Assembly (NCBI GenBank): GCA_016865865.1 | Contig: VGOC01000005.1 | Coordinates: forward strand, 1,194 to 65,193 | Direction: 5' to 3' | Origin: Chloroflexota bacterium | GTDB lineage: Bacteria > Chloroflexota > Anaerolineae > Anaerolineales > UBA11858 | DNA length: 64,000 nucleotides | Shown: in pieces, positions 3,249 through 46,399 of the stretch | Numbering within the stretch: the first letter of the stretch is position 1 | Layout of the letters: every line of letters begins with the position of its first letter | Translations under genes and position numbers: made by a program | Notes under the pieces: model-generated | Told to the model about the DNA's origin: nothing | The model's input: the letters and a program-made list of their open reading frames with translations, nothing else | Databases searched by the model: none

Positions 3249-4223
3249 ATGGCTGAAAAGACGTTCCCTAAACCGGAAGAATTCTGGGCCGATCGGCGGG
3301 TCTGTGTGACTGGGGGGGCAGGCTTCTTAGGCTCGTTCGTGCAGCGAGAACTGCGGGATCGAGGCGCTACTGAAGTCTTCATCCCTCATGTCGAACATTA
3401 CGATTTGACTTTGTTGGAAGATGTCCAGCGGGTCTTGAAAGATGCCAATCCTGATGTAATCATACACCTGGCGGCAATCGCGGGCGGTATCGGCGCTAAC
3501 CGCGCTCGCCCGGCCGAGTTCTTCTATAAAAACCTCATGATGGGCGTGCCGTTGATGCACGAAGCCTGGAAACAAGGTGTGGAGAAATTCGTCGCCATTG
3601 GCACGATCTGCGCCTATCCCAAATTTACGCCGATTCCTTTCAGGGAGGAAAACCTGTGGGATGGTTACCCCGAAGAGACCAATGCTCCTTATGGGTTGGC
3701 GAAAAAGATGCTCCTGGTTCAGGCTCAGGCCTACCGGGAGCAATACGGTTTCAATGCGATATATCTGCTCCCCGTGAATTTATATGGCCCGGGCGACAAT
3801 TTCAACCTGGAGACCTCTCACGTAGTTCCGGCGTTGATTCGCAAGATGATCGAGGCTCAGCAGCGCGGCGACTCCGAAGTTGTGTTATGGGGGGACGGTT
3901 CCCCCACGCGCGAGTTCTTCTACGCTGGCGATGCAGCCCGTGGCATCGTGATGGCAGCGGAGCGTTACAATAGCGCTGAGCCGGTCAACCTGGGATCGGG
4001 CATGGAAATCAGCATCAAAGATTTGGCTTCGTTGATTGCAGAGCTGACCGGCTTCGAGGGCGAAATCGTTTGGGATACCACCAAACCCAATGGCCAGCCG
4101 CGCCGCGGCCTGGATACCAGCCGGGCGAAGGAGTATTTCGGCTTCGAGGCGCAAATGCCCTTCGAAGAGGGGTTGCGGAGGACGATAGCGTGGTTTAGAG
4201 AGAATCAGGAGCGAATAGCGTAA
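3249..4223 (+). CDS. fcl: GDP-L-fucose synthase (GDP-4-keto-6-deoxymannose 3,5-epimerase/4-reductase)
   Basis: Has [18 protein letters not shown] and [24 protein letters not shown], and lies directly after gmd. The ATG at 3249 is preferred over GTG at 3243. Confidence 0.88.
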
Positions 4224-4273
4224 AACGTAAAACGTGATGAGTGATTCACGCTTCACGTTTTACACTTTACACG
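4219..4273. repeat. Period-7 degenerate tandem repeat forming an imperfect palindrome (AAACGTG/CACGTTT family)
   Basis: Reads cgtaaaa|cgtaaaa|cgtgatg|agtgatt|cacgctt|cacgttt|tacactt|tacacgg. The left half is the inverted complement of the right half. Confidence 0.75.
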
Positions 4274-4281
4274 GAAATCAA

Positions 4282-5139
4282 ATGACAGAGACTTCTCTTA
4301 CGACGAAAGCGGCCCCAGAGACGATCCTCCTGCGCCCCTCGCGCGGCTGGGCAGCCTTGAATTTAATGGATCTCTGGCGCTACAGAGAGTTGATCTACTT
4401 CCTCACCTGGCGCGATATCAAGGTGCTCTACAAACAGACTGTCCTAGGAGCCGCCTGGGCGATCTTGCGTCCCATCATTACGATGATCGTTTACGCGTTC
4501 ATTTTTGGGCAACTTGCCAACCTGGATTCTGAAGGAGTGCCGTATACGATCTTCACTTATGTGGCCTTGTTGCCCTGGCAGCTTTTCTCGAGAGCGATGA
4601 GCGAAACCGGGCGCTCGATGGTATCGAACCGCAATATGATTACGAAAATCTATTTTCCGCGTCTGGTCATCCCAGTTTCAACGATACTCAGCGGCATGGT
4701 GGATTTCTTTATCGCTTTTGTGATTTTGATCGGCATGATGTTCTATTACCAGATCAGCCCAACCCTTGCTATCTGGACTTTGCCGCTCTTCTTGTTATTG
4801 ACCTTGATAACAGCCTTAGGTGTTGGATTGTGGTTTTCTTCTTTGAATGTGCTGTACCGTGACATTGGTTATATCCTGCCATTTCTGACCGAGGTATGGA
4901 AGTACCTCACCCCGGTAGCCTATTCGGCTGGATATATCACGGGCGCGTGGAAAATCATCTATTCGATCAATCCGATGGCCGGGGTCGTGGAAGGATTCCG
5001 TTGGGCTTTATTAGGCATCGAACTGGACTCGTCCGCCTCGCTCACGATGTCCATTTCGATCGGTGTAGCCATTGTTGTGCTTATCAGCGGTTTATTCTAC
5101 TTCCGCCGCATGGAGCGAACTTTCGCGGATATGGTGTAG
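4282..5139 (+). CDS. wzm: ABC-2 type polysaccharide/O-antigen export permease
   Basis: Six hydrophobic spans and the typical N-terminal LWRYRELIYFLTWRDIKVLYKQTVLGAAWAILRP. The ATG at 4282 is preferred because 4234-4281 lies inside the heptamer repeat. Confidence 0.88.
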   Translation: MTETSLTTKAAPETILLRPSRGWAALNLMDLWRYRELIYFLTWRDIKVLYKQTVLGAAWAILRPIITMIVYAFIFGQLANLDSEGVPYTIFTYVALLPWQLFSRAMSETGRSMVSNRNMITKIYFPRLVIPVSTILSGMVDFFIAFVILIGMMFYYQISPTLAIWTLPLFLLLTLITALGVGLWFSSLNVLYRDIGYILPFLTEVWKYLTPVAYSAGYITGAWKIIYSINPMAGVVEGFRWALLGIELDSSASLTMSISIGVAIVVLISGLFYFRRMERTFADMV

Positions 5140-5172
5140 AGTTTTCACGTATCACGTTTCGCGTTTCGAGTT

Positions 5173-6459
5173 ATGACGGATTTAGCGATAAGAGTAAATG
5201 ACCTCGGCAAACAATACCGCATTGGGTTGGCTCCTGAGCGATATAAGACGCTGCGCGATTCTATCGTTGATGTGGTGACCTGGCCGCTTCAACGAATCCG
5301 CCGTGGGCTGGCTCCCTCGGGTGAGGACTATGCTGATACCATCTGGGCATTGCGCGATGTATCCTTCGAGGTCGAGCAAGGGAAAGTATTGGGGGTGATT
5401 GGGCGGAATGGGGCGGGCAAGAGCACGCTGCTCAAGATATTGTCGCGCGTTACCGAACCCACCGAAGGAGAAGTCGAGATCCGCGGCCGGGTTGGATCGC
5501 TCCTGGAAGTCGGCACAGGCTTTCACCCGGAATTGACTGGGCGCGAAAATATCTATCTCAATGGCGCTATTCTAGGGATGAAGCGCTCCGAGATAGACGG
5601 CAAATTCGATGAGATCGTTGACTTCTCCGGCGTCGAGCAATTTATAGATACCCCGGTCAAACGTTACTCTAGCGGCATGTATCTACGATTGGCTTTTGCG
5701 GTTGCAGCGCATTTGGAACCGGAAATCCTGGTGGTGGACGAGGTGCTGGCCGTCGGCGATGCCGAGTTTCAACGAAAATGCCTGGGGAAAATGAGCGACG
5801 TCGCTCAGGAAGGCCGCACAGTGCTATTCGTTAGCCATGATATGTCCGCGATTCTGCGCCTTACCGAAGAGGCCATCGTGCTGGATGATGGTCAACTGGT
5901 TTACCGCGCCCCTACCGTCGCGGCGGTGGATTATTATATGGTATCCGGATTCTCCGAGGCGGGGGAGCGCGTCTGGGATGATGATGAGATTCCAGAATCG
6001 GCTGCGCCCTTCCACCCCCTGGCTATGCGCGTGTGTAACTCGAATGGGCAGAATGTTGACGTAGTTCGCTCGACTGAGCCGATCAGCTTAGAGGTCGAGT
6101 ATCAACTGGCAGAACCCATCCACGGGCTGCGCGTCGGCCTCTACCTGATGAGCGCGCGCGGCGAATATGTCCTGACATCCTTCGATACCGATGAGCCGGA
6201 GCAGTATAACAACTATGGCGTCCGCCCTGCCGGTCACTTCCTCAGCCGTTGTACGATCCCGCCGGATTTGTTGAATGAAGGCCGATATACAGTGGGGGTG
6301 AACGCCAGCTCCTTCCGGGTGAAACGCTATTTCATGGATGAACGGGCTTTGACCTTCACAGTTGACGGCATGGGCGCGCCAGGGAAACAGTGGGCCGAAA
6401 CGCGCATGGGGCTGGTGAGGCCGCGCTTGAATTGGCAGATCGAGGCGGTAGAGAAATGA
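5173..6459 (+). CDS. wzt: Polysaccharide ABC exporter ATPase with a C-terminal Wzt_C-like carbohydrate-binding extension
   Basis: Walker [15 protein letters not shown], signature YSSGM and Walker [13 protein letters not shown]. About 170 extra C-terminal residues follow (..[30 protein letters not shown]..), which look beta-rich. Confidence 0.88.
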
Positions 6460-8081
6460 CGATGATTGGAAGCGAATCCTTGAAGAAGATTCTTGGCGAG
6501 TTTCCTGTTACCGCAGATCTCTACTGGCGGATTATGCAGCAGGCTGATCCTCCAGTGGGGGGGTACTTGCTTGACGACGTTCGGAAGCATCTGCCAACCT
6601 GGCTGGATCAAGCGCGGGCGGCAGAGGTGAAAAGCAATCACCCCAAACGCGTGCTGGTTTTCAGTGTGCTTCGATATTGGCTGGAACATAGCCTGCTCAT
6701 GAGCCTGGCACTGGTGGCTTTTGGACATGAGGTCACGCTGGCCTATTTACCGTATGCTCACTGGAAAAGACCCATCAATCGCTTCGACCTGCGCCGTCAG
6801 GATCTTTATATCAAAAGCATCATCAAGCAAATCGAACCCTTCGTAAGATTGGTCTCGATGCTGGATGCTCCGAAAGCCGACAGGCTGCCTGAAGCGATTA
6901 GCGACCAAATGGCGGCGGCAGCTTTCCGCGATACTCAATACAGTATGCTGCGGGAAGACATCGACACCGATGGCGAGATCTACCGATTGCGCCAGGAGCG
7001 CAACAACGATTATGCCCTGCGAATGTTGGCCTGGATGCAAAATGAACGCCCTGACGTGGTAGTCGTCCCGAATGGCAGCATCCTCGAATTTGGTATTACC
7101 TATCGTCTTGCCCGTTACCTAAACATCCCCGTGACGACCTACGAGTTTGGGGAACAAAACCACCGCATGTGGATGGCACAGAATAATGATGTGATGCGCC
7201 AGGACACCTCGGATTTATGGAATGCGCGCGGCGAGATACCATTGACTGACGTAGAAAAGGAACTGATCTATAATCTATTTTCGTCTCGCCAGGGAGCCAG
7301 TCTGTGGCATACCTTTGCCCGGCGATGGCAGGATGCGCCCAAAATCGGCGGCAGCGCAATACGGCAGGAGCTGGGCCTCGATTTGCGGCCTCTGGCATTA
7401 ATCCCGGCCAATGTGTTAGGCGATAGTCTGGTCCTCGGCCGGCAGCTATTTAGCGAGAGCAATACGGAGTGGTTGAAGCGCACAGTCGAATTCTTTATCG
7501 AGCATCCTGAGGCCCAGTTGGTTATTCGTGTTCACCCGGGAGAGCGCATAGGTTGGGGGTCCTCGGTCTATGAAATCTTAGTGCAACATTTTCAGGAATT
7601 CCCAGAAAATATCCACCTGCTCCCTGCGGAATCGAGCGTCAATACGTATGATTTGGTGGATGCCGCTGACTTTGGGCTGGTCTTCACCACAACCACCGGG
7701 ATGGAGATGGCCATGATCGGAAAACCAGTAATCGTTACGGGCCACACGCACTATCGCGGCAAGGGGTTCACGATTGATCCGAATACCTGGAAAGAGTACT
7801 TCGAAGCCTTGAAACAGGTGCTGTATGACCCCAAGGCTCACACTTTATCTGAAGGTCAGATCGAATTATCCTGGCGCTATGCTTATCGCTTTTTCTTCGA
7901 ATATCCTCAGCCTTTCCCCTGGCGAGTCCCCTATCTTTGGGAGAGCTTGAAGGAATGGAGCATGGCGCGGGTTCTCAGCCCAGAAGGACAGGCCCAATTT
8001 GGGAATACTTTTCGTTATCTGGTTGGCGAGCCGATTGATTGGGCTCGAAGTTATGTAGAAGGTCGGCTGACGAATGAGTGA
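6456..8081 (+). CDS. Capsule_synth-like (KpsC/KpsS-type) GT-B protein; candidate CMP-ulosonic-acid transferase
   Basis: Motifs [23 protein letters not shown] and [25 protein letters not shown] match the Q.xDS / HP / G.EA.l.gkPv pattern of KpsS/KpsC. The ATG at 6456 overlaps the wzt stop (ATGA). Confidence 0.6.
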
Positions 8082-9078
8082 TCATTTACGAGACCATCCT
8101 GTATTTTTATGTGGTTATCCCAGGTCTGGCACCTCCTTAGTGCGCGCGCTATTAGATGGCCATCCTCAGCTTGTCGTATATCCGTTCGAGACTTTCTTTT
8201 TCCGCGGCTTTCTCCCCCAGGCAGCCAGGCGTGACATGGATGGCAAGGTGGAGTTGGCCTCGAGGTACCTCCTTCAATTCGTTGGACTTCGCCACGAGAT
8301 GGAGGAGGATTATGAGCATTTCCATCCCAATGAGGATACCGTCCATGATTTTGCAAAAATGTGTCTCTCCATTCAGCGGCAAATTGCTGCCCATGGCTGC
8401 CGGCACGATGGGGACCTGCTCGCGGCATCAGTCCTGGCTTTTGGAGAAGTGTATGGCTTTCTCCATGAAAATACCCGTTGCTGGCTAGAGAAATCTGTTC
8501 ATAATGAATTCTTTGCAGAACAAATCTTTGGGTGGTGGCCTGAGGCTCGGTGCATTCATCTCATGCGAGATCCGCGCGATGTTTATTCATCGTATCATCC
8601 CAGGCGACAGAAGGTTCTACCCCGCCTGTTTTCGCTCCGTTGGGCGAGAAGCGCCCAAAAAGGGCTGGATAATCAACGGGTTTATGGGGAAGATCATTAT
8701 TACCTGATCGAATACGAACAACTGGCGCAAGACCCTGAAGCAGCTCTTCAGGGGTTGACCCATTTCTTAGGGATCGAAGATCATCCGATTTTACGAATTC
8801 CGTCTTCTATGGGGATTCCATGGGAAGGCAATTCGACCTTCGCAGACAAGTTCGCTGGTATTAGCGCCAGGCCTGTCGAAAGGTGGAGAAAAGAACTGGC
8901 TCGACATGATGTGCAGATCATCGAGCAGATTGCCAGACAACCCATGACAAAGTTGGGTTATCGGGTAGAAAATAAATGGTCATTGTCGACAAGTCTACGG
9001 ATACTGCGCGGGTTTCTCAGTTATTATCGTGATGCAATCGAAAAGATAGACCCGGCGGATATAGATGGTGTTGAATAG
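8074..9078 (+). CDS. Sulfotransferase
   Basis: A 5'-PSB-like loop FLCGYPRSGTSLV and a 3'-PB-like LMRDPRDVYSS. The start overlaps the upstream stop. Confidence 0.8.
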   Translation: MSDHLRDHPVFLCGYPRSGTSLVRALLDGHPQLVVYPFETFFFRGFLPQAARRDMDGKVELASRYLLQFVGLRHEMEEDYEHFHPNEDTVHDFAKMCLSIQRQIAAHGCRHDGDLLAASVLAFGEVYGFLHENTRCWLEKSVHNEFFAEQIFGWWPEARCIHLMRDPRDVYSSYHPRRQKVLPRLFSLRWARSAQKGLDNQRVYGEDHYYLIEYEQLAQDPEAALQGLTHFLGIEDHPILRIPSSMGIPWEGNSTFADKFAGISARPVERWRKELARHDVQIIEQIARQPMTKLGYRVENKWSLSTSLRILRGFLSYYRDAIEKIDPADIDGVE

Positions 9079-9093
9079 GTATCGGATGTAGTA

Positions 9094-9996
9094 ATGGTGG
9101 CCATGGCCGATATAAAACAGCATGTGCGAGAGTTCTACGACCAGGTTGGTTGGCTGGAAGTCAGCGAGGGAGTTTATCAAAACGCTCGCTATGAGGATTT
9201 ACGGCCAGTTTCACGTGAATATATTCATCGTTGCCATCTACGTGTGAGCCGCCACATCAAACCCGAGGGGCGCTACTTCCTCGACGCAGGTTCTGGGCCG
9301 ATTCAATACCCGGAGTATTTGGAGTATTCCAAGGGATACAATTACCGGGTCTGCGCTGATATTTCCTATGTAGCCCTGCAGGAAGCCAGGAAAAGGGTTG
9401 GCGATCACGGCCTGTTTGTGGTCGCCGATGTAGCTAATTTGCCCTTCGCTCCTGAAACTTTCGAGGGCGTTGTCTCATTGCATACGATCCATCATCTGCC
9501 GCAAGAAGAGCATGTTCAGGCATACAGAGAGTTATACCGGGTATTGTCCCCCGGATGTTCGGCGTCGGTTGTCAACGGTTGGGGCGATGCGCTGATCCCG
9601 CGCCTGTTATCGAATCCCATGCGCTGGACGAACCGCTTGCTGGGGGTTGTCAGGCGTTTATTGGGCATTACGCCCACAGAACATCCTGCAAAACCTGTCA
9701 GTATGTCTGATGATAACAAACCCACAAGCACCTTTGTGCGCAAAGATAGCGCCGATTGGTTGAAGGAGCAGCTCGCTACGTTGATGCCAATCGAAATCGT
9801 TGTCTGGCGGGGGATCAGTGTAAAGCACTTGCGCACCTTCATCCATCAGGGATGGGGTGGATGCTATGTGTTACGGTTTTTATTCTGGCTAGAGGAACGT
9901 TTTCCTCATTTCTTCGGAGAGAAAGGTCAATACCCCTTGGTTGTGATCCGAAAAATGAGCTACACAGATGAGTTCACTGAAAGAACTCATGAATGA
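9094..9996 (+). CDS. Class I SAM-dependent methyltransferase
   Basis: Motif I FLDAGSGPIQ, plus ..VADVANLPFAPETFEGVVSLHTIHHL (Methyltransf_11-like). Confidence 0.8.
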   Translation: MVAMADIKQHVREFYDQVGWLEVSEGVYQNARYEDLRPVSREYIHRCHLRVSRHIKPEGRYFLDAGSGPIQYPEYLEYSKGYNYRVCADISYVALQEARKRVGDHGLFVVADVANLPFAPETFEGVVSLHTIHHLPQEEHVQAYRELYRVLSPGCSASVVNGWGDALIPRLLSNPMRWTNRLLGVVRRLLGITPTEHPAKPVSMSDDNKPTSTFVRKDSADWLKEQLATLMPIEIVVWRGISVKHLRTFIHQGWGGCYVLRFLFWLEERFPHFFGEKGQYPLVVIRKMSYTDEFTERTHE

Positions 9997-11019
9997 ATGG
10001 AGTTGCATATGAATTGGAAAGATAAAACTATTCTCGTCACAGGCGGAACCGGGTCCTTTGGAAAAGCATTTTCCAGGATTATGTTAGAGGAATACCAGCC
10101 GGCTAAGTTGATTGTATTTAGCCGGGATGAACTCAAGCAGCACGAAATGAGGGTTTCTGGTTTCGACTACCCCAATATCCGATATTTTATCGGCGACGTT
10201 CGCGATCTACCACGATTGAAGCGCGCCATGCAGGGTGTGGATATCGTCGTCCATGCAGCCGCTCTGAAACAGGTGCCAGCCTGTGAATATAACCCCATGG
10301 AGGCAGTAAAGACCAACATCCTTGGCAGCAGCAACGTGGTTGATGCTGCTCTAGATACTGGGGTTAAAAAAGTTATGGCCTTGAGCACCGACAAGGCCGT
10401 CAGCCCGGTCAATTTGTATGGGGCCACGAAGCTCGCTGCCGAAAAACTAGTGATTCAAAGTAATGCCTACGCAGGAAAGTACGAAACACGTCTGAGTTGT
10501 GTGCGCTATGGCAATGTTGTTGGCAGTCGGGGAAGCGTTGTCCCGGTTTTTCTGAGTCAACGGGCCAATAACGGCAAACTTACCATAACCGACAAACGGA
10601 TGACGCGCTTCTGGCTATCGCTTGAGCAAGGAGTCAGGTTCGTGATCAAGAGCATTGAACACATGTTAGGTGGGGAAGTATTCATTCCTAAGATACCTAG
10701 CATGAAAGTGGTTGATCTGGCTAAAGTCATCGCCCCTGATGCAGAGATAGACATCATCGGTATTCGGCCAGGCGAGAAATTGCATGAGATGCTGATCTCG
10801 CGGGATGAATCTCGCTCGACTATCGAAATGGATGATATGTTCGTCGTTCAGCCGGTCGAAGCCTTCTGGTTTGGTGGAAAATGGAGTGAGAAGGGAAAAC
10901 CTGTTCCTGATGGTTTCCGCTATTCCAGCGCCGAGAATCCAGAGTGGCTTAATGTCGAACAGATCAGAGAGATGATCAAACCTTTCGAGGAGGCGTTTGC
11001 GCAAGGAAAGCTAGCTTAA
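9997..11019 (+). CDS. UDP-GlcNAc 4,6-dehydratase of the PseB/FnlA/CapE type
   Basis: Has KTILVTGGTGSFGKAF, LIVFSRDELKQHEM, GDVRD and NLYGATKLAAEKL. ATG at 10009 is an alternative start. Confidence 0.85.
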   Translation: MELHMNWKDKTILVTGGTGSFGKAFSRIMLEEYQPAKLIVFSRDELKQHEMRVSGFDYPNIRYFIGDVRDLPRLKRAMQGVDIVVHAAALKQVPACEYNPMEAVKTNILGSSNVVDAALDTGVKKVMALSTDKAVSPVNLYGATKLAAEKLVIQSNAYAGKYETRLSCVRYGNVVGSRGSVVPVFLSQRANNGKLTITDKRMTRFWLSLEQGVRFVIKSIEHMLGGEVFIPKIPSMKVVDLAKVIAPDAEIDIIGIRPGEKLHEMLISRDESRSTIEMDDMFVVQPVEAFWFGGKWSEKGKPVPDGFRYSSAENPEWLNVEQIREMIKPFEEAFAQGKLA

Positions 11020-11108
11020 GTATGTTTGCCTTGTATACCTTGCTTACCTGCAGGCTCGATGTGACCTCTGGTTGAGTGAATTGGGTAAATAGTGAATACA
11101 AGGTAAAG

Positions 11109-12029
11109 ATGATGCGAATACTGATAACAGGTACAGGCGGCCTTTTGGGAAGCAACCTCGCTTTAGAAGCCGCCAGCCGCCACACAGTTTTCGGGGTGGA
11201 TAGAAGTTGTCCTCAGAAAACGACTGCTTTCACCCCTATGGTGGCCGACTTGCTAGACCCGGGCGTGGTGGAACGTATCCTGGATGATACTCAACCCGAT
11301 TGGGTGATCCATTGCGCTGCTCAGGCGAACGTGGATGCCTGTGAGCATGATCCAGAGAATGCCCGGAAATTGAATACAGAACTGCCGCGAAAACTGGCGC
11401 ATCATGTCGCCAGGGGCGGAGCGCGCATGTTGCATGTATCCACGGATGCGGTTTTCGATGGACAGAAGGGTGAATATGGCGAGGAAGATCCTCCAAATCC
11501 CCTCAATATTTATGCGCAAACAAAATTAGCTGGGGAATATGGAGTTCTCGAAACATCGCTCGATGCCATCGTAGCCCGGATAAATATCTTTGGGTGGAGT
11601 CCGTCAGGCAGGCGTAGCTTAGCTGAATTTTTCTATAACAACCTGGAAGCCGGTAACCCGATCAAGGGCTTCGTGGATGTTTTATTCTGCCCCTTGTTAG
11701 TGAATGATATAGCCGACCTGTTTCTAAAGATGCTAGATAGGGGATTGAGCGGGTTATATCATGTGGTCAGCAGCGAGAGCATCAGTAAATATGATTTCGG
11801 TGTTGCTATTGCGAGAAGATTCGGCTATGACCCTGATCTCATTACGCCAGTTTCTGTTAGCCAGGCTGGTCTTAAAGCGATCCGCTCTACCAACCTCACC
11901 CTGCGCGTGGATAAACTCATCCACGATTTGGGGGTAGTTCCTCCGGGTTTGTCCCCAGGGATAGATCGGTTTTACACGTTTTATCAACAGGGCTATCCAC
12001 AAATGATACGAACCTTGTGTGCAGAATAA
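11109..12029 (+). CDS. RmlD-substrate-binding-domain reductase (dTDP-4-dehydrorhamnose reductase / FnlB/WbjC-like)
   Basis: Has MMRILITGTGGLLGSNL and YAQTKLAGE. The ATG at 11109 is preferred over GTG at 11076. Confidence 0.75.
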   Translation: MMRILITGTGGLLGSNLALEAASRHTVFGVDRSCPQKTTAFTPMVADLLDPGVVERILDDTQPDWVIHCAAQANVDACEHDPENARKLNTELPRKLAHHVARGGARMLHVSTDAVFDGQKGEYGEEDPPNPLNIYAQTKLAGEYGVLETSLDAIVARINIFGWSPSGRRSLAEFFYNNLEAGNPIKGFVDVLFCPLLVNDIADLFLKMLDRGLSGLYHVVSSESISKYDFGVAIARRFGYDPDLITPVSVSQAGLKAIRSTNLTLRVDKLIHDLGVVPPGLSPGIDRFYTFYQQGYPQMIRTLCAE

Positions 12030-12048
12030 GAATGCAGAGGTCAAAGAT

Positions 12049-13131
12049 ATGAATATTCCCTCCCCTGAAATTACCATAGCTGACCGGAAAGTCGGCCTCA
12101 ATCACCCCACCTATTTCATCGCTGACATCGCCGCCAACCACGATGGCGATCTGGAGCGCGCCAGGTTTCTCATCCGGCTGGCGAAAGAAGCCGGCGCCGA
12201 GGCTGCCAAATTCCAGAATTTCCGCGCCCCCAATATCGTCTCCGATTATGGGTTCAAGTCGTTGGGCGGCCAGCTCTCTCATCAGGCCAGTTGGAAGAAA
12301 AGCGTGTTCGAGGTGTATAGAGATGCCTCGATCCCCTTCGAGTGGACGCCGATCCTCAAAGAGACATGTGACGATGTGGGAATTCACTATTTCTCCTCCC
12401 CATACGACTACGACGCCATTGATATGCTGGCCCCATATGTGCCAGCCTATAAAGCCGGCTCTGGGTTGATGTCGTGGCCTGATGGGCTGGTGCGCATGGC
12501 AAAACTCGGCAAACCCTTGCTGATCGCAACGGGCGCGGCGGATATCAGCGATGTGGTGCGCGCCATGCGGGCGGTGAGGCCGGTCAACGATCAAATTGTA
12601 CTCATGCAGTGCAACACCAATTACACCGCTGCCGACTCGAATTACGATCACCTCAATCTCAATGTGCTCAGGACATATGCCGCCATGTTCCCGGATGTAG
12701 TGTTGGGACTCTCGGATCACACCCACAGCCCGGCGCCGATCGTCGGCGCGATAGCCTTGGGGGCGCGCGTCATCGAACGGCACTTCACCGACGATAACGA
12801 CCGAGAAGGCCCCGACCACAAATTTGCCATGAACCCCGAGAATTGGGCTGAGATGGTTCATCAAGTCCGCACACTCGAGCGCGCATTGGGATCATTCGAC
12901 AAATTCGTCACCGGCAGCGAGCAAGAAACTTACGTGCTCCAACGCCGATGTCTGCGGGCTGCCCGGGAGATCAAGGCTGGCGAAACCATCGCTGAGGATA
13001 TGGTCGAACCCCTGCGCCCTGCCTCTCCAGGCGCGATCATGTCCTGGGAGCTGGACAGACTCGTTGGAAGGAAGGCCCTGGTGGACATGCCGTATGGGAT
13101 GGATATGCGGTGGGAGAATATTGGGGCATGA
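12049..13131 (+). CDS. NeuB/PseI/LegI-family ulosonic (nonulosonic) acid synthase with a SAF domain
   Basis: Has PTYFIADIAANHDGDLERARFLIRLAKEAGAEAAKFQNF, VIERHFT and a C-terminal REIKAGETI (SAF). The ATG at 12049 has a gagg RBS. Confidence 0.85.
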   Translation: MNIPSPEITIADRKVGLNHPTYFIADIAANHDGDLERARFLIRLAKEAGAEAAKFQNFRAPNIVSDYGFKSLGGQLSHQASWKKSVFEVYRDASIPFEWTPILKETCDDVGIHYFSSPYDYDAIDMLAPYVPAYKAGSGLMSWPDGLVRMAKLGKPLLIATGAADISDVVRAMRAVRPVNDQIVLMQCNTNYTAADSNYDHLNLNVLRTYAAMFPDVVLGLSDHTHSPAPIVGAIALGARVIERHFTDDNDREGPDHKFAMNPENWAEMVHQVRTLERALGSFDKFVTGSEQETYVLQRRCLRAAREIKAGETIAEDMVEPLRPASPGAIMSWELDRLVGRKALVDMPYGMDMRWENIGA

Positions 13132-13203
13132 AACGTAAAAAGGTAAACCGTAGAAAGTGATTTCAGTTTCTCGATTACATCTCACGTTTTACGTTTATTC
13201 CAT

Positions 13204-14361: not shown

Positions 14362-14389
14362 TATTTTTAGCCATCGCATGTATGGAGGC

Positions 14390-14502
14390 AACTACTCAGC
14401 CAAACGGAGAAATTCCCGAAAAAAGGGTGTGCGTGGGGGTGCTGCGCACCCCCACGCACACCCTTTTTTCGGGCTAATCCGTTCGATGACTGAGCAGTTA
14501 CG
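14390..14502. mobile_element. 113-nt MITE-like palindromic element, copy A
   Basis: Identical to 61536-61648 except for the 3-nt loop. It has a perfect 28-bp stem, cccgaaaaaagggtgtgcgtgggggtgc / gcacccccacgcacacccttttttcggg, and imperfect outer inverted repeats aact.ctcag. Confidence 0.75.
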
Positions 14503-14516
14503 TATGGAGTGCCGTT

Positions 14517-15287: not shown

Positions 15288-15303
15288 CAAACTAACCAAC
15301 CCC

Positions 15304-19276: not shown

Positions 19277-19279
19277 AAA

Positions 19280-23440: not shown

Positions 23441-23536
23441 GTGGATTTATGGCGTGCTTATCTGTGTTCATCCCTTCAATCCGTGTCCCATTTCTTGTCT
23501 CACTTTCTCTGAAACAACTCTATTGGAGATTGATTA

Positions 23537-25372: not shown

Positions 25373-25384
25373 ATCGCGGACGAC

Positions 25385-28024: not shown

Positions 28025-28027
28025 AAG

Positions 28028-32329: not shown

Positions 32330-32403
32330 GTTGGCGTAAACCATGTTATGATTTCGCCCCGCCGGCTTTATGGTCGGCGTTTTCGTTGTCACAAAATAAT
32401 TCT

Positions 32404-34229
<1,826 letters not shown>

Positions 34230-34240
34230 AAGGCAAACGA

Positions 34241-35062: not shown

Positions 35063-35067
35063 CTCCG

Positions 35068-35823: not shown

Positions 35824-35885
35824 ACAAGGTATACGAGTATTACCTGTCCACCTTGTGTACATGTACCTGTTACGGAGAATAAACT

Positions 35886-39354: not shown

Positions 39355-39368
39355 TCCTGGCCGATATT

Positions 39369-39440
39369 CAATACTTCACGAAATCACGATCTACGACCCG
39401 TCCTCGGGTCGCCCGGGGACGGGCTTTCGATCTTTTTCGT
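39369..39440. repeat. Nested-palindrome REP/terminator-like element, copy 2 (core inverted relative to copy 1)
   Basis: caatacttcacgaaatcacgatctacgacccgtcctcgggtcgcccggggacgggctttcgatctttttcgt. A 14-bp GC-rich stem is followed by a T-rich tract, 15 nt after the upstream stop. Confidence 0.75.
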
Positions 39441-39517
39441 TATCCACTGATATTGGATAATGATTCACCGCAGAGCCGCGGAGTGCGCAGAGAAAAAATG
39501 GGTAGGGCAACATCAGA

Positions 39518-41173
39518 ATGTCTTCGATAGCTGTTGTTGAAAAGATAAAGTCGCGTGTAATGACACGGGCTTTGCAATATAAGTCTGATTTGCAGATTTC
39601 ACGCCTTTCGCGGGATGTGGCGCGTTTTAGCAACCTGGATTCTCAGCAGAAACCGGTTGCATTTTTCAATGTCTCCTCACGTCTGGGGGGCATAAGCCAG
39701 AATGCTGCCTTCACTCTCCTGACATCGTGGGGATTGCAGTTCGCAGGCTCGCCGGTCGTCCATTTTGCTTGCCGCGCCGGGATGAGCCGCTGTGTGTTGG
39801 GGATGAACCCTGATGACCACACTGCATCCCCGCCATGTGAAACTTGTGTCGCCCAATCGAAGAAGTTGCTGGCTTCAACCCCAGCCCATTGGTTCGAATT
39901 CATTCCAAATGAAGCACTTGCCAATGAGATCTATTCTCTCGACCTCGAAGAACTGAGCAATTATCAATTTACAATTGACAATTCACAATTATCAATTCAT
40001 GGCAGGATCATTCCTCTTGGAGAACTGACCATCACTTCCCTCCGCTGGGCCCTACGCCAGCATCACCTTCCCGACGACGAAGCCGTTCGTCACCAACTGC
40101 GTGAATATATCCTTTCTGCCTATCGTGTGGCTGAGACATTCGATTCCTTTCTGACCGGAGTCGAGCCAGCCGTCGTTGTCCTCTTCAACGGATTGCAGTT
40201 CCCCGAAGCCACAGCCCGTTGGGTGACCCGCCATCTCGGCATCCGCACGATCACACATGAGGTCAGCTTTCAGCCCTTTTCGGCCTTTTTCACCGAGGGG
40301 GATGCCACCGCTTACCCCATCGAGATACCAGACGAATTCGAATTATCCCCTTCGCAGAACGCTCGCCTGGAAGCCTATCTCAGTCACCGGTTCCAGGGCG
40401 AGTTCACTATGGCTGGCATCCGTTTCTGGCCTGAGATGAGCGGGTTAGACAAAGCCTTTTTACAATTCGCAGCCCAATTCGAGCAGATCGTGGCGGTGTT
40501 CACAAATGTGGTTTTCGACACCAGCCAGCTCCACGCCAACACGGTTTTCCCGCAGATGTTCGCCTGGTTGGACTTGATCCTCGAAATCATCAAATCGCAT
40601 CCTGAAACGCTTTTTGTGATTCGCGCTCATCCTGACGAAAAACGCCCCGGCACTCGCAAGCAGAGCCGCGAAAGCGTCAGTCATTGGGTGGCGCACAATG
40701 GCGTTGATCAGCTCCCCAATGTGATCTTCATCGATTCGGGCGAATATATCAGCTCCTATGATCTGATCCGCCGGGCAAAGTTCGTGATGGTATATAACTC
40801 TTCCATTGGCCTGGAAGCGACGCTACTAGATACGCCCGTCTTGTGCGGTGGGAAAGCCCGCTTCACTCAATACCCTATCGTACACTTTCCGCAGACGCCA
40901 GCGGAATACCGACAAGTTGCTGAAGAATTTCTGGCTTCCGAAAAGTTGATCGTGCCAGAAGAGTTCGAACGCAATGCCAGACGGTTTTTGTATTATCAAC
41001 TTTTCCGCGTTTCTTTGCCTTTCGATGAATTCATCGAAGCTCATCCTATCCCAGGATATGTGCAGCTCAAACCCTTCTCCTGGCGCGATCTGCAACCCGA
41101 ACACTCGCCCACGTTGCGCGTCGTCGTGGATGGAATCCTCGATACTAAGCCCTTCGTTCTTTCGGATGAATAA
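39518..41173 (+). CDS. Capsule_synth-like (KpsC/KpsS-type) GT-B protein with an N-terminal Cys cluster
   Basis: Has VAVFTNVVFDTSQL, LFVIRAHPDEKR and VMVYNSSIGLEATLLDTPVLCGGKARF. The Cys cluster is CRAGMSRC...CETC. An in-frame 42-nt heptamer repeat lies at 39958-39999. Confidence 0.6.
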   Translation: MSSIAVVEKIKSRVMTRALQYKSDLQISRLSRDVARFSNLDSQQKPVAFFNVSSRLGGISQNAAFTLLTSWGLQFAGSPVVHFACRAGMSRCVLGMNPDDHTASPPCETCVAQSKKLLASTPAHWFEFIPNEALANEIYSLDLEELSNYQFTIDNSQLSIHGRIIPLGELTITSLRWALRQHHLPDDEAVRHQLREYILSAYRVAETFDSFLTGVEPAVVVLFNGLQFPEATARWVTRHLGIRTITHEVSFQPFSAFFTEGDATAYPIEIPDEFELSPSQNARLEAYLSHRFQGEFTMAGIRFWPEMSGLDKAFLQFAAQFEQIVAVFTNVVFDTSQLHANTVFPQMFAWLDLILEIIKSHPETLFVIRAHPDEKRPGTRKQSRESVSHWVAHNGVDQLPNVIFIDSGEYISSYDLIRRAKFVMVYNSSIGLEATLLDTPVLCGGKARFTQYPIVHFPQTPAEYRQVAEEFLASEKLIVPEEFERNARRFLYYQLFRVSLPFDEFIEAHPIPGYVQLKPFSWRDLQPEHSPTLRVVVDGILDTKPFVLSDE

Positions 41174-43020: not shown

Positions 43021-43049
43021 GAGTATAATTCGAAAATTAGGTAGAAAAT

Positions 43050-43718
43050 ATGTCTCGACTTATTGCCCTCGTCCCCATGCGGCACAGTTCCCAACGGGTG
43101 CCGGGAAAAAATTATCGCCTGTTGGGGGGGAAGCCGCTGTTTCACTACATCATTGCCACACTGCTCGAGGTTCCCCAGATCGCTGAAGTGGTAGTGAATA
43201 CCGACAGCCCAGAGATTGCCGAAGGTTTGGGGAAATCCTTCCCGAGCGTGCGGGTGCTGGAACGACCCGCGCATTTGCAAGCCCCTGAAGTGCCGATGAA
43301 TGAAATCCTGGCTTACGACACATCCCAGATCGAAGCTGATTTCTATTTGCAAACCCACAGCACAAATCCCCTGTTGTGCGCCGAGACGATATCGAAAGCA
43401 ATCAGAGTATTTTTGGAGCAGTATCCGGCCCATGATTCTCTTTTCTCGGTGACAAGTCTAAAGACCCGCCTGTACGATCAACTGGGGCGGGCGATCAACC
43501 ATAATCCGGCTTACCTGCTGCAAACCCAGGATTTACCCCCGGTTTACGAGGAGAATTCCTGCATCTACATCTTTACGAAAGAAACCTTGCTGGCGCGCCG
43601 AAACCGCCTGGGGGAACGGCCTCTGATGTTCGAGATCGCCGCCGTGGAGGCCTGGGATATCGATGAGGAACTAGATTTCGAGATAGTGGATTTCTTGATG
43701 AGGAGAAAAGGTGATTAG
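43050..43718 (+). CDS. CTP_transf_3-family cytidylyltransferase (third in the window)
   Basis: Has LIALVPMRHSSQRVPGKNYRLLGGKPLFHYIIATL and VVNTDS. Confidence 0.78.
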   Translation: MSRLIALVPMRHSSQRVPGKNYRLLGGKPLFHYIIATLLEVPQIAEVVVNTDSPEIAEGLGKSFPSVRVLERPAHLQAPEVPMNEILAYDTSQIEADFYLQTHSTNPLLCAETISKAIRVFLEQYPAHDSLFSVTSLKTRLYDQLGRAINHNPAYLLQTQDLPPVYEENSCIYIFTKETLLARRNRLGERPLMFEIAAVEAWDIDEELDFEIVDFLMRRKGD

Positions 43719-43789
43719 ATATTGGTGATTGGGTATTAGGTTAGACGCTTTCCTGATACCCACTACCCAATACCTAATACCCAATCACC
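43710..43789. repeat. Inverted pair of period-7 repeats (TGATTGG/CCAATCA family) containing a perfect 18-bp inverted repeat
   Basis: ggtgattgggtattaggt (43724-43741) pairs with acctaatacccaatcacc (43772-43789). The right arm ends at the base before the ATG at 43790. Confidence 0.85.
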
Positions 43790-44749
43790 ATGTTTACCAT
43801 TCTATTCACCGCCCCCTACATGATCCCCTCCCTCGATCGCTTCCGGCCTATGCTGGAGAAATATGGCCTGGAGTTGATCGTCGCCGAGGTAAAGGAACGG
43901 CTCGACGAAGAGGAGATCATCGCTTATGCCGGTCGGTTCGATGGCGCGATCTGCGGGGATGACCGCTATTCGGCGCGCGTCCTGGAGGCCTGCGCGCCGC
44001 GCTTGAAGGTGATTTCCAAGTGGGGCACCGGGATCGATTCCATCGACCAGGAAGCCTGCGCTCGCCTGGGGATCAAGATCGGCAATACGCCTAACGCTTT
44101 TACGCTGCCGGTGGCAGATACCGTGATGGGGTATATCCTGGCCTTCGCCCGCCGACAACCCTGGATGGATCGTGATATGAAAAAGGGTCGGTGGCAGAAG
44201 CTTCCAGGTTGGTCATTGAGCGAATGTACATTGGGCGTGATCGGTGTGGGAAATATCGGCAAGGCGGTCCTCCGCCGGGCCAGCGCCTTCGGCATGGAGT
44301 TGTTGGGCAATGATGTCGTCGAGGTTGATCCTGTTTTTGTGCGCGAAAACCGTGTCGAGATGACTTCACTCGAAGATTTGATGAAGCGGGCTGATTTCGT
44401 CAGCGTGAATTGCGATCTCAACCCCACCAGCCATCATTTGATCAATGCGCGGACATTGGCGTGGATGAGACCTGAATCGGTGTTGATCAATACCGCGCGC
44501 GGCCTCGTCGTTGACGAATCTGCCCTGATCGCGGCGCTGCAATCGGGCGGCATCGCCGGGGCGGCGTTGGATGTTTTCGAAACAGAACCCCTCCCAGAAG
44601 GGAGTCCGCTGCTCCACATGGATCAGGCGATGGTCGCGCCGCATAACGCCAATTCCAGCCCAATGGCCTGGGAGCGAGTCCACTGGAATACTATCCGTAA
44701 TCTGCTGGATGGACTGGGAATCGATTGTTCGAATTTGCCATCCCAATAA
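43790..44749 (+). CDS. D-isomer-specific 2-hydroxyacid dehydrogenase family (PGDH-like)
   Basis: Has LGVIGVGNIGKAVLRRA, INTARGLVVDESAL and LDVFETEPLP. Confidence 0.85.
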   Translation: MFTILFTAPYMIPSLDRFRPMLEKYGLELIVAEVKERLDEEEIIAYAGRFDGAICGDDRYSARVLEACAPRLKVISKWGTGIDSIDQEACARLGIKIGNTPNAFTLPVADTVMGYILAFARRQPWMDRDMKKGRWQKLPGWSLSECTLGVIGVGNIGKAVLRRASAFGMELLGNDVVEVDPVFVRENRVEMTSLEDLMKRADFVSVNCDLNPTSHHLINARTLAWMRPESVLINTARGLVVDESALIAALQSGGIAGAALDVFETEPLPEGSPLLHMDQAMVAPHNANSSPMAWERVHWNTIRNLLDGLGIDCSNLPSQ

Positions 44750-44779
44750 CCAGCAATCGTTTAGCGACTCGACAAAAAT

Positions 44780-45538
44780 ATGAAACGAAAAACTATGCTG
44801 ATCACTGGCGCGGCTGGAGGCATTGGCCGCGCAACGGTTGAGTTGTTTGCCAGGAAGGGCTGGCGTGTCATCGGCGTTGATCGCGCTCCCTTTGGGGATG
44901 GTTTCCCGGAGGATGGCTTGTTCATCCGAGCAGACATCTCGGATGGCTCAGCCCTGGAATCGATTTTCGAGCAAACGAAAAGCTTCACGAAAACCCTGGA
45001 TGCTTTGATCAACAATGCCGCCTATCAAATCACCAAGCCGTTGCTGGAGACCAGCGTGGAAGAATGGGATGCGGTGATGGCCTCGAATTTGCGCTCGGTA
45101 TTCTTGAGCGCCAAGCTGGCGTATCCGCTGTTGAAAAACCAAGGCGGCGGCGCGGTGGTCAATGTCTCGTCGGTTCATGCGGTGGCCACCTCGAAGGATA
45201 TCGCCGCCTACGCGGCCAGCAAAGGCGGGCTTCTGGCGTTGACCAGGGCTATGGCCATCGAATTCGCGCCAGATAACATCCGTGTGAACGCGATCCTGCC
45301 CGGGGCGGTGGATACGCCCATGCTGCGCGCCGGGATGAACCGCGATCACGCCGGCGCTGGCAGTGTGCAGGAGCGCCTGGACAATCTGGCCCGCAAGACG
45401 GTCAGCGGCAAGATCGGCACGCCCGAAGAGATTGCCCATGCGATCTATTTTCTGGCCGATGCGACTCAATCTTCCTTTATGACCGGGCAGGCCATGATCG
45501 TTGATGGGGGAGCGACGGCGCGATTGAGCACAGAATAG
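44780..45538 (+). CDS. Classical SDR-family oxidoreductase
   Basis: Has MLITGAAGGIGRAT, NNAA and YAASKGG. Confidence 0.85.
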   Translation: MKRKTMLITGAAGGIGRATVELFARKGWRVIGVDRAPFGDGFPEDGLFIRADISDGSALESIFEQTKSFTKTLDALINNAAYQITKPLLETSVEEWDAVMASNLRSVFLSAKLAYPLLKNQGGGAVVNVSSVHAVATSKDIAAYAASKGGLLALTRAMAIEFAPDNIRVNAILPGAVDTPMLRAGMNRDHAGAGSVQERLDNLARKTVSGKIGTPEEIAHAIYFLADATQSSFMTGQAMIVDGGATARLSTE

Positions 45539-45571
45539 CGTTCGAACGTAAAACGTGAAACGTCAAGAGCA

Positions 45572-46399
45572 ATGGCAGATTTAAGAAAAGCTATCAAAGG
45601 ATTGTTTCCTCCAGCGGTATGGGAGCCAATCAGCGAGGCGCGTTACACCATTCAGTATGCAGCCCAGTGGCCGGCGGCCACATTACACCCCTGGCGGCGG
45701 GAGAGCATCCGACGGCTGGCCGAATGGAAGGACAGATACAAAGGGGAGCGTTGTTTCATCATCGGCAATGGGCCAAGCCTGACGAACACCGACGTTTCGA
45801 AACTGGCGGGTGAGTATACCTTTGGGATGAACCGCATATATCTGGCCTTCCCCGAGTGGGGCTTCAAGACCACTTTTCTCGTCTCGGTCAACGACCTGGT
45901 TATCGAACAGTGCGTGGACGATTTTATCGCCCTGGATATTCCCAAATTCTTCTCCTGGCGCTCACGTCGGTTCTTTACCCAACCACCAATCCCTAATCAC
46001 CAATCACCGATCTTTCTCCACACCACCTACACCGGCCCAAAATTCGCTGCCGACGCCCGCGGCCGCCTGTGGGAGGGCGCGACTGTGACCTATGTCTGCC
46101 TGCAACTGGCCTTCTATCTGGGTTTCGAAAAGGTCATCTTGATCGGCGTGGATCATAGCTTTTCCAGCCAGGGCAAGCCGAATACGACTGTGGTCTCCTC
46201 TGGCGATGACCCGAATCATTTCGACCCCGGCTACTTCGGCAAGGGCTTCCGCTGGCAACTGCCTGATCTGGACACCTCAGAACGCGCCTATCGGATGGCA
46301 AGGGAGGTTTTCAAGTCGGCCAGGCGCCAGGTTCTGGATGCCACGATTGGGGGGAAATTGACTGTATTCCCAAAAATTGACTACGATACGTTGTTTTAG
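45572..46399 (+). CDS. DUF115 / MptE-like (Maf-type) protein; candidate CMP-nonulosonate transferase
   Basis: Has CFIIGNGPSLTNTDVSKL and VILIGVDHSF. The GNGPSL motif is shared with Campylobacter Maf proteins and GT42 sialyltransferases. A heptamer repeat segment lies at 45979-46013. Confidence 0.6.
   Translation: MADLRKAIKGLFPPAVWEPISEARYTIQYAAQWPAATLHPWRRESIRRLAEWKDRYKGERCFIIGNGPSLTNTDVSKLAGEYTFGMNRIYLAFPEWGFKTTFLVSVNDLVIEQCVDDFIALDIPKFFSWRSRRFFTQPPIPNHQSPIFLHTTYTGPKFAADARGRLWEGATVTYVCLQLAFYLGFEKVILIGVDHSFSSQGKPNTTVVSSGDDPNHFDPGYFGKGFRWQLPDLDTSERAYRMAREVFKSARRQVLDATIGGKLTVFPKIDYDTLF

Follow-up and report, generated by a model that had tools for sequence, protein, structure and literature searches.

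Short tandemly repeated repetitive (STRR) sequences, which have a unit of seven nucleotides, were reportedly described by Mazel in 1990 in heterocystous cyanobacteria (as cited in PMC4692102). Heptanucleotide repeats have been recognised as over-abundant in cyanobacteria since 1990 and in bacteria generally since 2007, and the excess has no accepted cause; the sole proposal, still untested, is a footprint of polymerase slippage (Mrazek 2007, in the form in which it is cited in PMC4679880 and PMC4692102). In this study, heptanucleotide arrays were analysed in a stretch of 64,000 nucleotides (contig VGOC01000005.1; in the following called the window), which is a polysaccharide gene cluster of an uncultured member of the Anaerolineales (Chloroflexota). 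Several of the arrays form hairpins between the stop codon of one gene and the start codon of the next, and in related genomes arrays of the same plan enclose genes of the family PF05635. Apparently new are the occurrence of heptameric repeats in this lineage, their form as stop-to-start hairpins, and a hitherto unreported, testable link to cassettes of the intervening sequence (IVS) or Avd-like type across bacteria. No paper on heptamer repeats in Chloroflexota was found, but the coverage of the literature was incomplete and a prior description is possible.

Xanthomonas genomes contain 70-75 convergent pairs of GGGAATC arrays (Rehm 2015, PMC4692102). Direct repeats of the word TAACTGA occur in marine Beggiatoaceae, some cyanobacteria and Bacteroidetes (MacGregor 2015, PMC4679880). 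In the 23S rRNA of Coxiella burnetii, an IVS carries an S23p open reading frame (ORF) and heptamers in the stem arms, the number of which varies among strains (Warrier 2016, PMC4990558), and RNase III cuts within this stem (PMC4990558).

Excess of the seven-nucleotide period

The initial annotation of the window had claimed degenerate heptanucleotide repeats at gene junctions and inside coding sequences (CDSs), and had named the comparison with shuffled sequence as a check. Arrays were detected with Tandem Repeats Finder (TRF; score ≥ 30), and 100 dinucleotide-preserving shuffles served as null. An earlier period scanner with a mismatch penalty of -3 was too strict (4 lag-7 matches), and TRF on shuffles was used instead. 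The window showed 11 TRF rows of period 7 in comparison to 1.14 ± 1.11 in the shuffles (maximum 4), and 4 rows of period 14 in comparison to 0.2, while the periods 5, 6 and 8-13 were at or near the shuffle expectation. Per 10 kb, 1.72 period-7 arrays were detected in the window and 0.34 in real DNA of other phyla (36 loci). The finding is real, and the repeats are more structured than could be seen in the annotation.

The excess of period 7 is a trait of the Anaerolineales lineage. In 111 Anaerolineales loci (1.78 Mb), 124 period-7 arrays were detected in comparison to 39.6 after shuffling (3.1-fold), and 32 arrays of period 14 in comparison to 5.8. In other phyla (0.59 Mb), 20 period-7 arrays were detected versus 14.6 after shuffling (1.4-fold), and period 14 was not enriched. 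Within the Anaerolineales, 39% of the period-7/14 arrays were located in the 7% of the sequence outside long ORFs. Furthermore, 28 of the 124 period-7 arrays possessed an inverted partner (≥12/14 bases, ≤150 nt away), in comparison to 4 of 124 in a composition-matched null.

All sequences cited in the annotation were present at the respective positions. When each site was tested separately, lag 7 was the top lag, with match fractions of 0.6-0.93, at 4219, 5141, 43710, 45541, 16127, 16997, 19144, 39958 and 45979. The period was weaker at 13133 (0.48-0.52), and at 15271-15303 it proved to be 8 instead of 7. The period of 9 assigned to 23411-23449 was correct (lag-9 match 0.83), as was the statement that several different heptamer words are in use. 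When the lag spectrum was averaged over the 70 nt after every stop codon, lag 7 reached 0.280 versus ~0.266; this measure is diluted, and the bump is small because most junctions have no spacer.

These results place the arrays in the over-represented class of heptameric simple sequence repeats (SSRs) known from Mrazek 2007 and of the Xanthomonas/Nostoc type: period 7 lies above the null and the neighbouring periods do not. The intergenic bias and the variation in length and sequence between related genomes, which characterize this class, were likewise observed, and so were convergent (inverted) array pairs, both in the lineage (28/124 versus 4/124) and as three hairpins in the window.

Hairpins between stop and start codons

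All coordinates refer to the + strand, on which the arrays are read and which carries nearly all window genes. The strongest junction hairpin is located at 43710-43789 (dG -32.3 kcal/mol, z -5.18, 28 pairs; lag 7 dominant). Its 5' arm (GGTGATT AGATATT GGTGATT GGGTATT AGG) is devoid of C, the stop codon TAG (43716-43718) takes part in the pairing of the stem, and the 3' arm (CCTGATA CCCACTA CCCAATA CCTAATA CCCAATC ACC) abuts the ATG at 43790. A second hairpin at 4218-4273 (dG -20.6, z -3.85, 21 pairs; lag-7 match 0.71) was not equalled by any of 200 shuffles. The upstream stop codon TAA (4221-4223) falls within its 5' arm, CGTAAAA CGTAAAA CGTGATG AGTGATT (8 G, 1 C), and the 3' arm, CACGCTT CACGTTT TACACTT TACACG, ends ~9-10 nt before the ATG at 4282. 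The third hairpin, at 13131-13197, consists of looser heptamers (dG -19.2, z -2.07, 23 pairs; lag-7 match 0.48-0.52). Its 5' arm is ACGTAAA AAGGTAA ACCGTAG AAAGTGA, its 3' arm ends with ..CACGTTTTACGTTT, and it spans from the TGA stop (13129-13131) to a position 7 nt upstream of the ATG at 13204.

All three hairpins fill the whole spacer and have loops of 3-12 nt. Between the 3' arm and the following start codon there are 0-10 nt, and the stop codon of the upstream gene is situated within or at the 5' arm, so that folding sets stop and start side by side. The common plan is a stop codon followed by a G/T/A-rich, C-poor heptamer array, a short loop, a complementary C/A-rich array and the start codon. 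This G-rich-first polarity, shared by the three hairpins of the window, was also found in the larger sample: relative to the direction of the genes, G exceeded C in the 5' arm of 26 of 27 ORF-less hairpins (p = 4e-7).

At 23411-23490 there is a period-9 hairpin with the layout described above (TACACGGAT x3-4; dG -17, z -2.5; lag-9 match 0.83). The array ends a gene for a protein of 742 amino acids, includes the stop codon of this gene and is followed by a partial inverted partner (..ATCTGTGT..AATCCGTGT). The claim that many of the repeats are inverted pairs that can fold therefore holds for 4219, 43710, 13133 and the 9-nt site and fails for 5141, 15271 and 45541, which are described below.

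The heptamer hairpins were not among the terminator-like sites of a scan of 4000-16000; they have A/T-rich stems and are not followed by a T run. The window gave no match to Rfam 15 at the gathering score, the check for tRNA and tmRNA was negative, and no rRNA is encoded in the window; the heptamer elements sit between protein-coding genes. As read from the sequence, the genes that follow C/A-rich arms (15288-15306, 43780-43792, 13190-13206, 5160-5175) have no recognisable Shine-Dalgarno motif (e.g. ..AACCAACCCC-ATG and ..CCCAATCACC-ATG), whereas clear GGAG-type motifs precede the PF05635 genes of relatives and other window genes (35886, 48019).

The C-poor 5' arms (4219-4246, 13133-13160, 43710-43744) contain TAA, TAG or TGA in all three frames. 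As 7 cannot be divided by 3, any stop triplet contained in a tandem heptamer comes up in each of the three frames within 21 nt. A role of the 5' arms as portable three-frame stop modules was considered; it fits the arms in the window and fails for GTGTCAN, the commonest word of the Chloroflexota cassettes, which contains no stop codon.

Three further arrays are one-armed, unstructured and located in spacers of 16-33 nt. The direct array at 5141-5170 (GTTTTCAC GTATCAC GTTTCGC GTTTCGA; lag-7 match 0.74, z +2.2) fills the 33-nt spacer between the genes of an ABC-2 permease (wzm-like) and its ATPase (wzt-like). The array at 45541-45568 (AAC GTAAAAC GTGAAAC GTCAAGA; lag-7 match 0.67, z -0.4) likewise lies in a spacer of 33 nt. 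The C/A-rich array at 15271-15303 (ACCAACC AGCCAAC TAACAAA CTAACCA ACCCC) has a match of 0.68 at lag 8 and of 0.38 at lag 7, does not fold (0 kcal), overlaps one gene at its end and leads without interruption into the ATG at 15304; a Shine-Dalgarno motif is absent. The word order AACGTAAAACGT[GA]AAACGTGA..GTGAT is common to the four junction arrays at 45541, 4216, 13128 and 5137, at the latter as reverse complement. In addition, the spacers 11020-11075 (TTGCCTTG TATACCTTG CTTACCTG) and 35824-35885 (GGTATACGAGTATTACCTGTCCACCTTGTGTAC) resemble decayed arrays of period 7 to 9, and clear heptamer hairpins are present at these two junctions in relatives (loci L018, L023, L087, L096, L098, L102).

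The same junctions in related genomes

Related genomes showed three states when the orthologues of the junctions 11020, 13132, 35824, 43719 and 45539, and also the permease|ATPase junction, were compared: overlapping stop and start codons without a spacer, a heptamer hairpin with other words (GTCAAAA/GTCGAAA, CGATATT, AGAGTAG, TAATTAG, GTGTCAG, ACCTATT), and an insertion of 420-500 nt. The last state was seen at junctions orthologous to 5140, 13132 and 43021.

At the 43719 junction, the six closest relatives (L088-L093) possess a spacer of only 7-9 nt and no hairpin; the hairpin of the window is therefore a lineage-specific gain. Arrays with other words are present at this junction in four more distant genomes (L095, L096, L106, L113), which filled it independently. 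At 45539, the orthologous AACGTTN array comprises one unit in L089 and L093 and five units in L088, and altogether 1, 3 or 5 units across species, a change in copy number of the slippage type. The assumption that slippage acts on these repeats is thus borne out by the 45539-type array and also by the array in the loop at 39958, which differs in copy number and word among orthologues.

The permease|ATPase junction is hit recurrently in different Anaerolineae, both by PF05635 cassettes and by ORF-less heptamer hairpins, and elsewhere the two genes overlap (TAATG). A different palindromic element (GTCATTGCGAGG..GAAGCAATCTCC..GGAGATTGCTTCG..CCTCGCAATGAC) occurs in similar junctions of other Anaerolineales (L005, L009, L010, L018, L030).

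PF05635 genes enclosed by heptamer arms

The insertions at the 5140- and 13132-type junctions (L001, L002, L003, L022) contain ORFs of ~120 amino acids, which match PF05635 with E values of 1e-25 to 1e-32 and also TIGR02436. Proteins of the family PF05635/TIGR02436 are four-helix-bundle proteins and are referred to as S23p or '23S rRNA intervening-sequence protein'. Among solved structures, XCC0516 of Xanthomonas (2gsc) and 2rld are nearest. The family is regarded as Avd-like (PMC10053308). Screening of the proteins against the PADLOC defence models was negative. In the first set of loci, inverted arrays of period 7/8 flank 7/7 of these ORFs, one of which (L002) is a truncated pseudogene. Many PF05635 cassettes sit exactly at the permease|ATPase junction (L001:8765-9220, L002:9571-10013, L180, L181, L183, L187, L188, L192, L205), with ~90 nt on either side of the IVP gene.

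Two samples of PF05635 loci were collected irrespective of their context (L167-L326; e.g. L187:1380-2000, L294, L314): 80 loci by an alignment of the Chloroflexota type (L167-L246) and 80 by XCC0516. The latter set spans Proteobacteria, Bacteroidota, Acidobacteriota, Planctomycetota, Verrucomicrobiota, Clostridia, the candidate phyla radiation (CPR) and others. Flanks of 120-130 nt were scored, and sequence 450-500 nt away served as control. Genes from many phyla, 77 of the Chloroflexota type and 76 of the XCC0516 type, had a signal in their flanks at lag 7 and at no other lag. The mean best run amounted in both sets to 9-11 at lag 7 and to 3-5 at other lags (controls ~3), and lag 7 was the top lag for 67/77 Chloroflexota-type and 57/76 XCC0516-type genes. 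A lag-7 run of at least 8 was present on either side of 53/77 and 52/76 genes, respectively (controls 9/76 and 3/69). Complementarity of at least 12 between upstream and downstream flank was found in 43/78 and 40/77 cases, respectively (controls 0/76 and 0/71).

The arms of these cassettes show the polarity of the ORF-less hairpins. Upstream of PF05635 genes, arrays with more G than C outnumbered the others by 36:1 in the diverse set and by 29:14 in the Chloroflexota set. 'GT' was present in 87% of the upstream units and 'AC' in 88% of the downstream units, in comparison to ~60% of shuffled units. Furthermore, the words co-vary with the subclade of the protein: GT[GA]TCA flanks 36 of the 41 loci whose protein is at least 69% identical to the query, and GTT[TC]CA flanks 24 of the 39 loci below 69% and none of the 41 above. 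Since the word is constant within a subclade of the protein and changes between subclades, gene and arms travel, or evolve, as a unit. Target-site duplications of repeated insertion and excision were ruled out as the source of the arrays, since the flanks are reverse complements and not direct repeats. Beyond the one IVS of Coxiella, no published description of PF05635 genes flanked by heptamer arrays was found; here, too, coverage of the literature was incomplete and an earlier description is possible.

Comparison with described repeat families

The arrays of the window belong to the same general class as the bacterial heptameric simple repeats and are not STRR sequences, to which the annotation had likened them. 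They share with STRR the tandem heptanucleotide unit, the intergenic location and the use of several word families per genome. In addition, the array at 16997 (ACTGACC/ACTGTTT/ACTGGG) is similar to STRR1 and STRR3 when these are read as reverse complements (ACTGGGG, ACTGTTG). However, dimers of the three canonical words CCCCAGT (STRR1), TTGGTCA (STRR2) and CAACAGT (STRR3) were absent from both strands of the window, even with up to 2 mismatches. The host belongs to the Anaerolineales and not to the cyanobacteria, and the arrays are much shorter, degenerate, often paired as hairpins and often located inside CDSs. The likeness therefore extends to the kind of repeat and not to membership in this family.

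With the heptameric SSRs of the Xanthomonas type, the arrays have in common the 7-nt unit, an excess at period 7 only, the mainly intergenic location, copy numbers and sequences that vary between related genomes, and frequent inverted pairing. A homologue of XCC0516 in Pseudoxanthomonas (L247) is flanked by arrays of the GGGAATA type. In contrast to the Xanthomonas repeats, many words per genome occur in place of one dominant G-rich word, there is no G-quadruplex potential, the arrays are short (2-6 units) and degenerate, and the hairpins bridge stop and start codons within operons. The TAACTGA repeats are also intergenic, comprise 2-6 copies and often stand directly before start codons without a Shine-Dalgarno motif; a few of them lie inside ORFs in the stop-free orientation, and copies within ORFs are found in the window as well. 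However, they consist of one dominant word and only very rarely form inverted pairs (one in 170 sets), whereas in the window the words are many and hairpin pairs are common.

S23p-type IVSs resemble the hairpins of the window in their terminal inverted repeats, in stems of 20-28 bp (21, 23 and 28 pairs in the window) and in the tandem heptamers of the stem arms, and relatives of the window share with them the PF05635 gene between inverted heptamer arrays. The window hairpins, however, lie between protein-coding genes and not in helix 25 or 45 of the 23S rRNA, and their loops contain no ORF; with no ORF and no location in rRNA, they lack two defining features of S23p-type IVSs.

Repetitive extragenic palindromic (REP) sequences and MITEs (miniature inverted-repeat transposable elements) are likewise short intergenic hairpin insertions at gene junctions and possibly non-autonomous derivatives of a gene-carrying element. 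The arrays of the window differ from them in having no near-identical dispersed copies and no visible target-site duplication, and in arms that are themselves tandem heptamers. No REP/MITE family covering the heptamer sites was found in the window; the four related junction arrays share only a loose word order. True families of this kind, which are quite unlike the heptamer arrays, are also present in the window. A palindromic, G+C-rich element of 127 nt (..AAAAAAGGGTGTGCGTGGGGGTGC..GCACCCCCACGCACACCCTTTTTT..) occurs in two copies with 94% identity (14382-14508 and 61528-61654); it looks like a MITE/REP resembling a bidirectional terminator and is unrelated to the heptamer arrays. An intergenic hairpin family (GATCGAAAGCCCGT[AC]CCCGGGCGACCCGAGGACGGGTCTTTGATC) comprises three copies with 87% identity (32416-32486, 47930-48000 and, inverted, ~39388-39432).

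Arrays inside genes

According to the initial annotation, the repeats invade coding sequence without breaking frames. This is supported at two sites. In the gene for a CTP_transf_3 cytidylyltransferase, the array at 16997-17031 (TACTGAC CACTGTT TACTGAC CACTGTC CACTGGG), which encodes NTDHCLLTTVHWD, represents a loop insertion, as most orthologues have a gap of ~15 residues there. The six CAATTNA units at 39958-39999 (42 nt, 14 codons) lie in a loop of hypervariable length in a Capsule_synth-like protein of 551 amino acids. This loop comprises 0-25 residues in distant orthologues, and in close orthologues it contains period-7 arrays of its own, with other copy numbers and words, two of which form inverted pairs within the gene.

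For two further arrays an insertion is plausible, as they lie in segments that vary among orthologues. In an MptE-like protein, the array at 45979-46013 (CCAACCA CCAATCC CTAATCA CCAATCA CCGATCT) encodes a variable segment of near-constant length, the sequence of which is not conserved among orthologues; on the minus strand the array reads GTGATTG/GTGATTA and thus belongs to the word family of the 43710 hairpin. The array at 19144-19165 (GAGTTAT GAGTTAG GAGTTAG; lag-7 match 0.93) lies in the linker after a methyltransferase domain, which is variable among orthologues and of roughly constant length.

The weak array at 16127-16154 (GAATTAC GCATTAC GTTTTAC; TRF score 30, 73% matches) in a DUF4910/M28 protein encodes a segment which is conserved among orthologues in length and partly in sequence, and its interpretation as an insertion is doubtful. 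A TRF match of period 7 at 19523-19541 (AATATCC AATATCT AATAT) coincides with the conserved GT2 motif GNIQYLIF, and the match at 11168-11182 (AGCCGCC x2.1) is a case of the same kind. As these three matches are located in conserved protein segments, they are probably due to chance.

Origin of the arrays

We favour, tentatively and with somewhat less than even confidence, a reading of the junction hairpins as ORF-less or decayed cassettes of the IVS type, which elsewhere contain a PF05635 gene; they would have been inserted between cistrons and later resized by slippage. Directly observed are the period-7 excess, the hairpins and their polarity, gains of arrays and changes in copy number from species to species, and the association with PF05635 genes. 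Since PF05635 genes located at these junctions in relatives are enclosed by arms of identical plan and polarity, the hairpins are read as ORF-less cassettes, and those of the window would descend from cassettes of the PF05635 type. The one-armed arrays of the window are probably ORF-less or decayed cassettes of this kind as well. Following this reading, an IVS-type cassette with heptamer arms would insert between cistrons from stop to start, and its arrays would then gain or lose 7-nt units by slipped-strand mispairing. Folding of the transcript would juxtapose stop and start codons, and a stem of at least 20 bp would serve as a substrate of an RNase III-type enzyme, by analogy with the IVS of Coxiella and with other rRNA IVSs. 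The insertion would be near-neutral for the expression of the operon, and the element would be tolerated or selfish and not a regulator of the host. Inside genes, arrays would persist only if they keep the reading frame and fall into a protein loop in which they are tolerated.

Several points weigh against this origin. The 64-kb window contains neither a PF05635 ORF nor a remnant of one, as judged by tblastn. In one genome (L001), the cassette carries the word GGACGGG and the ORF-less array the word AACGTTT, so that hairpins are not simple deletion copies of the nearest cassette. No array changed its length in any of six population contigs that are 99.94-99.99% identical to the window and cover its positions 1-16459; current instability of the arrays is therefore not demonstrated. 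The sense strand has no folding advantage, as it folded better in 12 of 27 hairpins (p = 0.49), and G-U pairs are not enriched in the sense strand. In the window, the antisense strand folds better for each of the three hairpins, since the mismatches of the sense strand are of the A-C kind. In view of this lack of asymmetry, a function at the RNA level cannot be claimed from the folding test. Moreover, the order of events may have been the reverse, with cassettes inserting into pre-existing heptamer hairpins, word similarity says little about shared ancestry in heptamers of low complexity, and this origin does not account for the unit length of 7 nt.

It is unlikely that replication slippage suffices, i.e. 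that the replicative polymerase of this lineage slips by preference in 7-nt steps and leaves neutral debris, tolerated by spacers and protein loops, without any element being involved, which is close to the simple slippage microsatellites considered in the annotation. Slippage does act: orthologous arrays differ in copy number, the words are many and site-specific, and intragenic copies occur only in variable loops; the idea of a polymerase footprint has been published (Mrazek 2007, as far as it is cited in PMC4679880 and PMC4692102). What slippage does not predict are the inverted pairs (28/124 versus 4/124 in the null), the G-rich-first polarity (26/27), the exact bridging of stop and start by hairpins, and whole hairpins of 60-80 nt at junctions which measure 7-9 nt in the closest relatives. 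Nor does it predict the strict association of lag 7 with PF05635 genes in phyla without a general period-7 excess, and it explains neither why other phyla lack this excess nor why an identical architecture surrounds PF05635 genes, both at the corresponding junctions of relatives and in many phyla. A chance or compositional artefact of 64 kb of coding-dense sequence has next to no probability. It probably accounts for three of the eleven TRF matches (11168, 19523 and 16127), which lie in conserved protein segments; shuffles give ~1 match. However, 11 matches against 1.14 ± 1.11 and a maximum of 4 in 100 shuffles, a density in real DNA of other phyla that is one fifth of that of the window, the intergenic concentration and folding z values down to -5.2 do not agree with it, and the shuffles, the other phyla and the intergenic results together refute it.

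Selection by the host for intercistronic RNA hairpins, independent of any cassette and for translational coupling, processing by RNase III/E or segmental mRNA stability, is also improbable. The hairpins are not conserved: none is present at 43719 in the closest relatives, many genomes have overlapping stop and start codons instead, and words and lengths vary freely between genomes. They showed no advantage of the sense strand in folding, no G-U enrichment and no match to an Rfam family, and neither the 7-nt unit nor the PF05635 link would be explained. Such selection would agree, on the other hand, with stems that span the whole spacer and have stop and start at their base, with following genes that have no Shine-Dalgarno motif, unlike other genes and PF05635 genes, and with the repeated filling of the same junctions in different genomes. 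Still less probable is that each 7-nt unit is a putative binding site and that the arrays spread by titrating or recruiting an abundant nucleic-acid-binding protein, for which a cold-shock-type protein with OB-fold, which binds one heptamer per molecule, or the pentameric PF05635 protein would be candidates. The window encodes no PF05635 protein, and many different words occur in one genome. The co-variation of the word with the PF05635 subclade, which would suit a binding protein, would be expected just as well if gene and arms are inherited together. Protein binding would further be consistent with a period of strictly 7 across phyla while the words vary, with the constant strand polarity, which suggests recognition of a single strand, and with the binding of CspB to heptamers, as discussed in PMC4679880.

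A wider generalization can be put forward, which we consider rather unlikely. Inverted heptamer arrays would be the terminal arms of a very widespread, unrecognised class of PF05635 cassettes, the same as the ORF-bearing IVSs of 23S rRNA, which would insert in rRNA and also exactly between stop and start codons of operons and be neutralised at the RNA level by the stem and RNase III. Slippage would have further resized their ORF-less derivatives, and from these the heptamer excess in bacteria would stem, comprising STRR, GGGAATC and TAACTGA repeats and the arrays of the window. In the window and its relatives, the arrays have a fixed architecture and polarity and also enclose the enigmatic S23p/PF05635 family, which is related to Avd, the accessory protein of diversity-generating retroelements (DGRs). 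The repeat arms flanking PF05635 genes may explain the over-abundance of 7-base repeats in many bacteria. Recurrent insertion at operon junctions, especially between ABC-2 permease and ATPase genes, affects gene calling and operon models in metagenome-assembled genomes (MAGs) of Chloroflexota. If the link to PF05635 fails, the arrays still represent a clean new example of heptameric repeats at the level of a lineage, including in-frame copies in protein loops.

Gene content and population of the window

The Wzt-type ABC ATPase encoded in the window has its top relatives in MAGs of Anaerolineales, with at most 87% amino acid identity, and the best relatives of the capsule-synthesis-like protein of 551 amino acids were likewise found in Anaerolineales MAGs. 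Functions in polysaccharide formation were identified in the checked parts of the first ~46 kb, namely epimerases, an ABC-2 exporter, glycosyl-, methyl- and sulfotransferases, NeuB and a cytidylyltransferase. Contigs from lake metagenomes (JGI 3300020109, 3300020083 and 3300020221 and three SRA runs) encode identical proteins and are 99.94-99.99% identical to the window. A scan of a metagenome collection revealed no length variants of the 4219 hairpin, although the search pattern matches the window; the population is probably absent from that collection.

Paralogous segments also occur in the cluster. Three GT2-like genes (19280-20224, 20152-21258 and 23537-24496) share stretches of 35-72 nt with 74-83% identity, and a direct repeat of 264 nt with 73% identity is formed by 49558-49821 and 51468-51731. 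A second Wzt-like ATPase is encoded near the end of the window (5500-5785 versus 62972-63257). Finally, an ORF for 1243 amino acids at 54739-58470 contains six degenerate repeats of 78 nt (26 codons) at 55684-56097, which are arranged in tandem or overlap.

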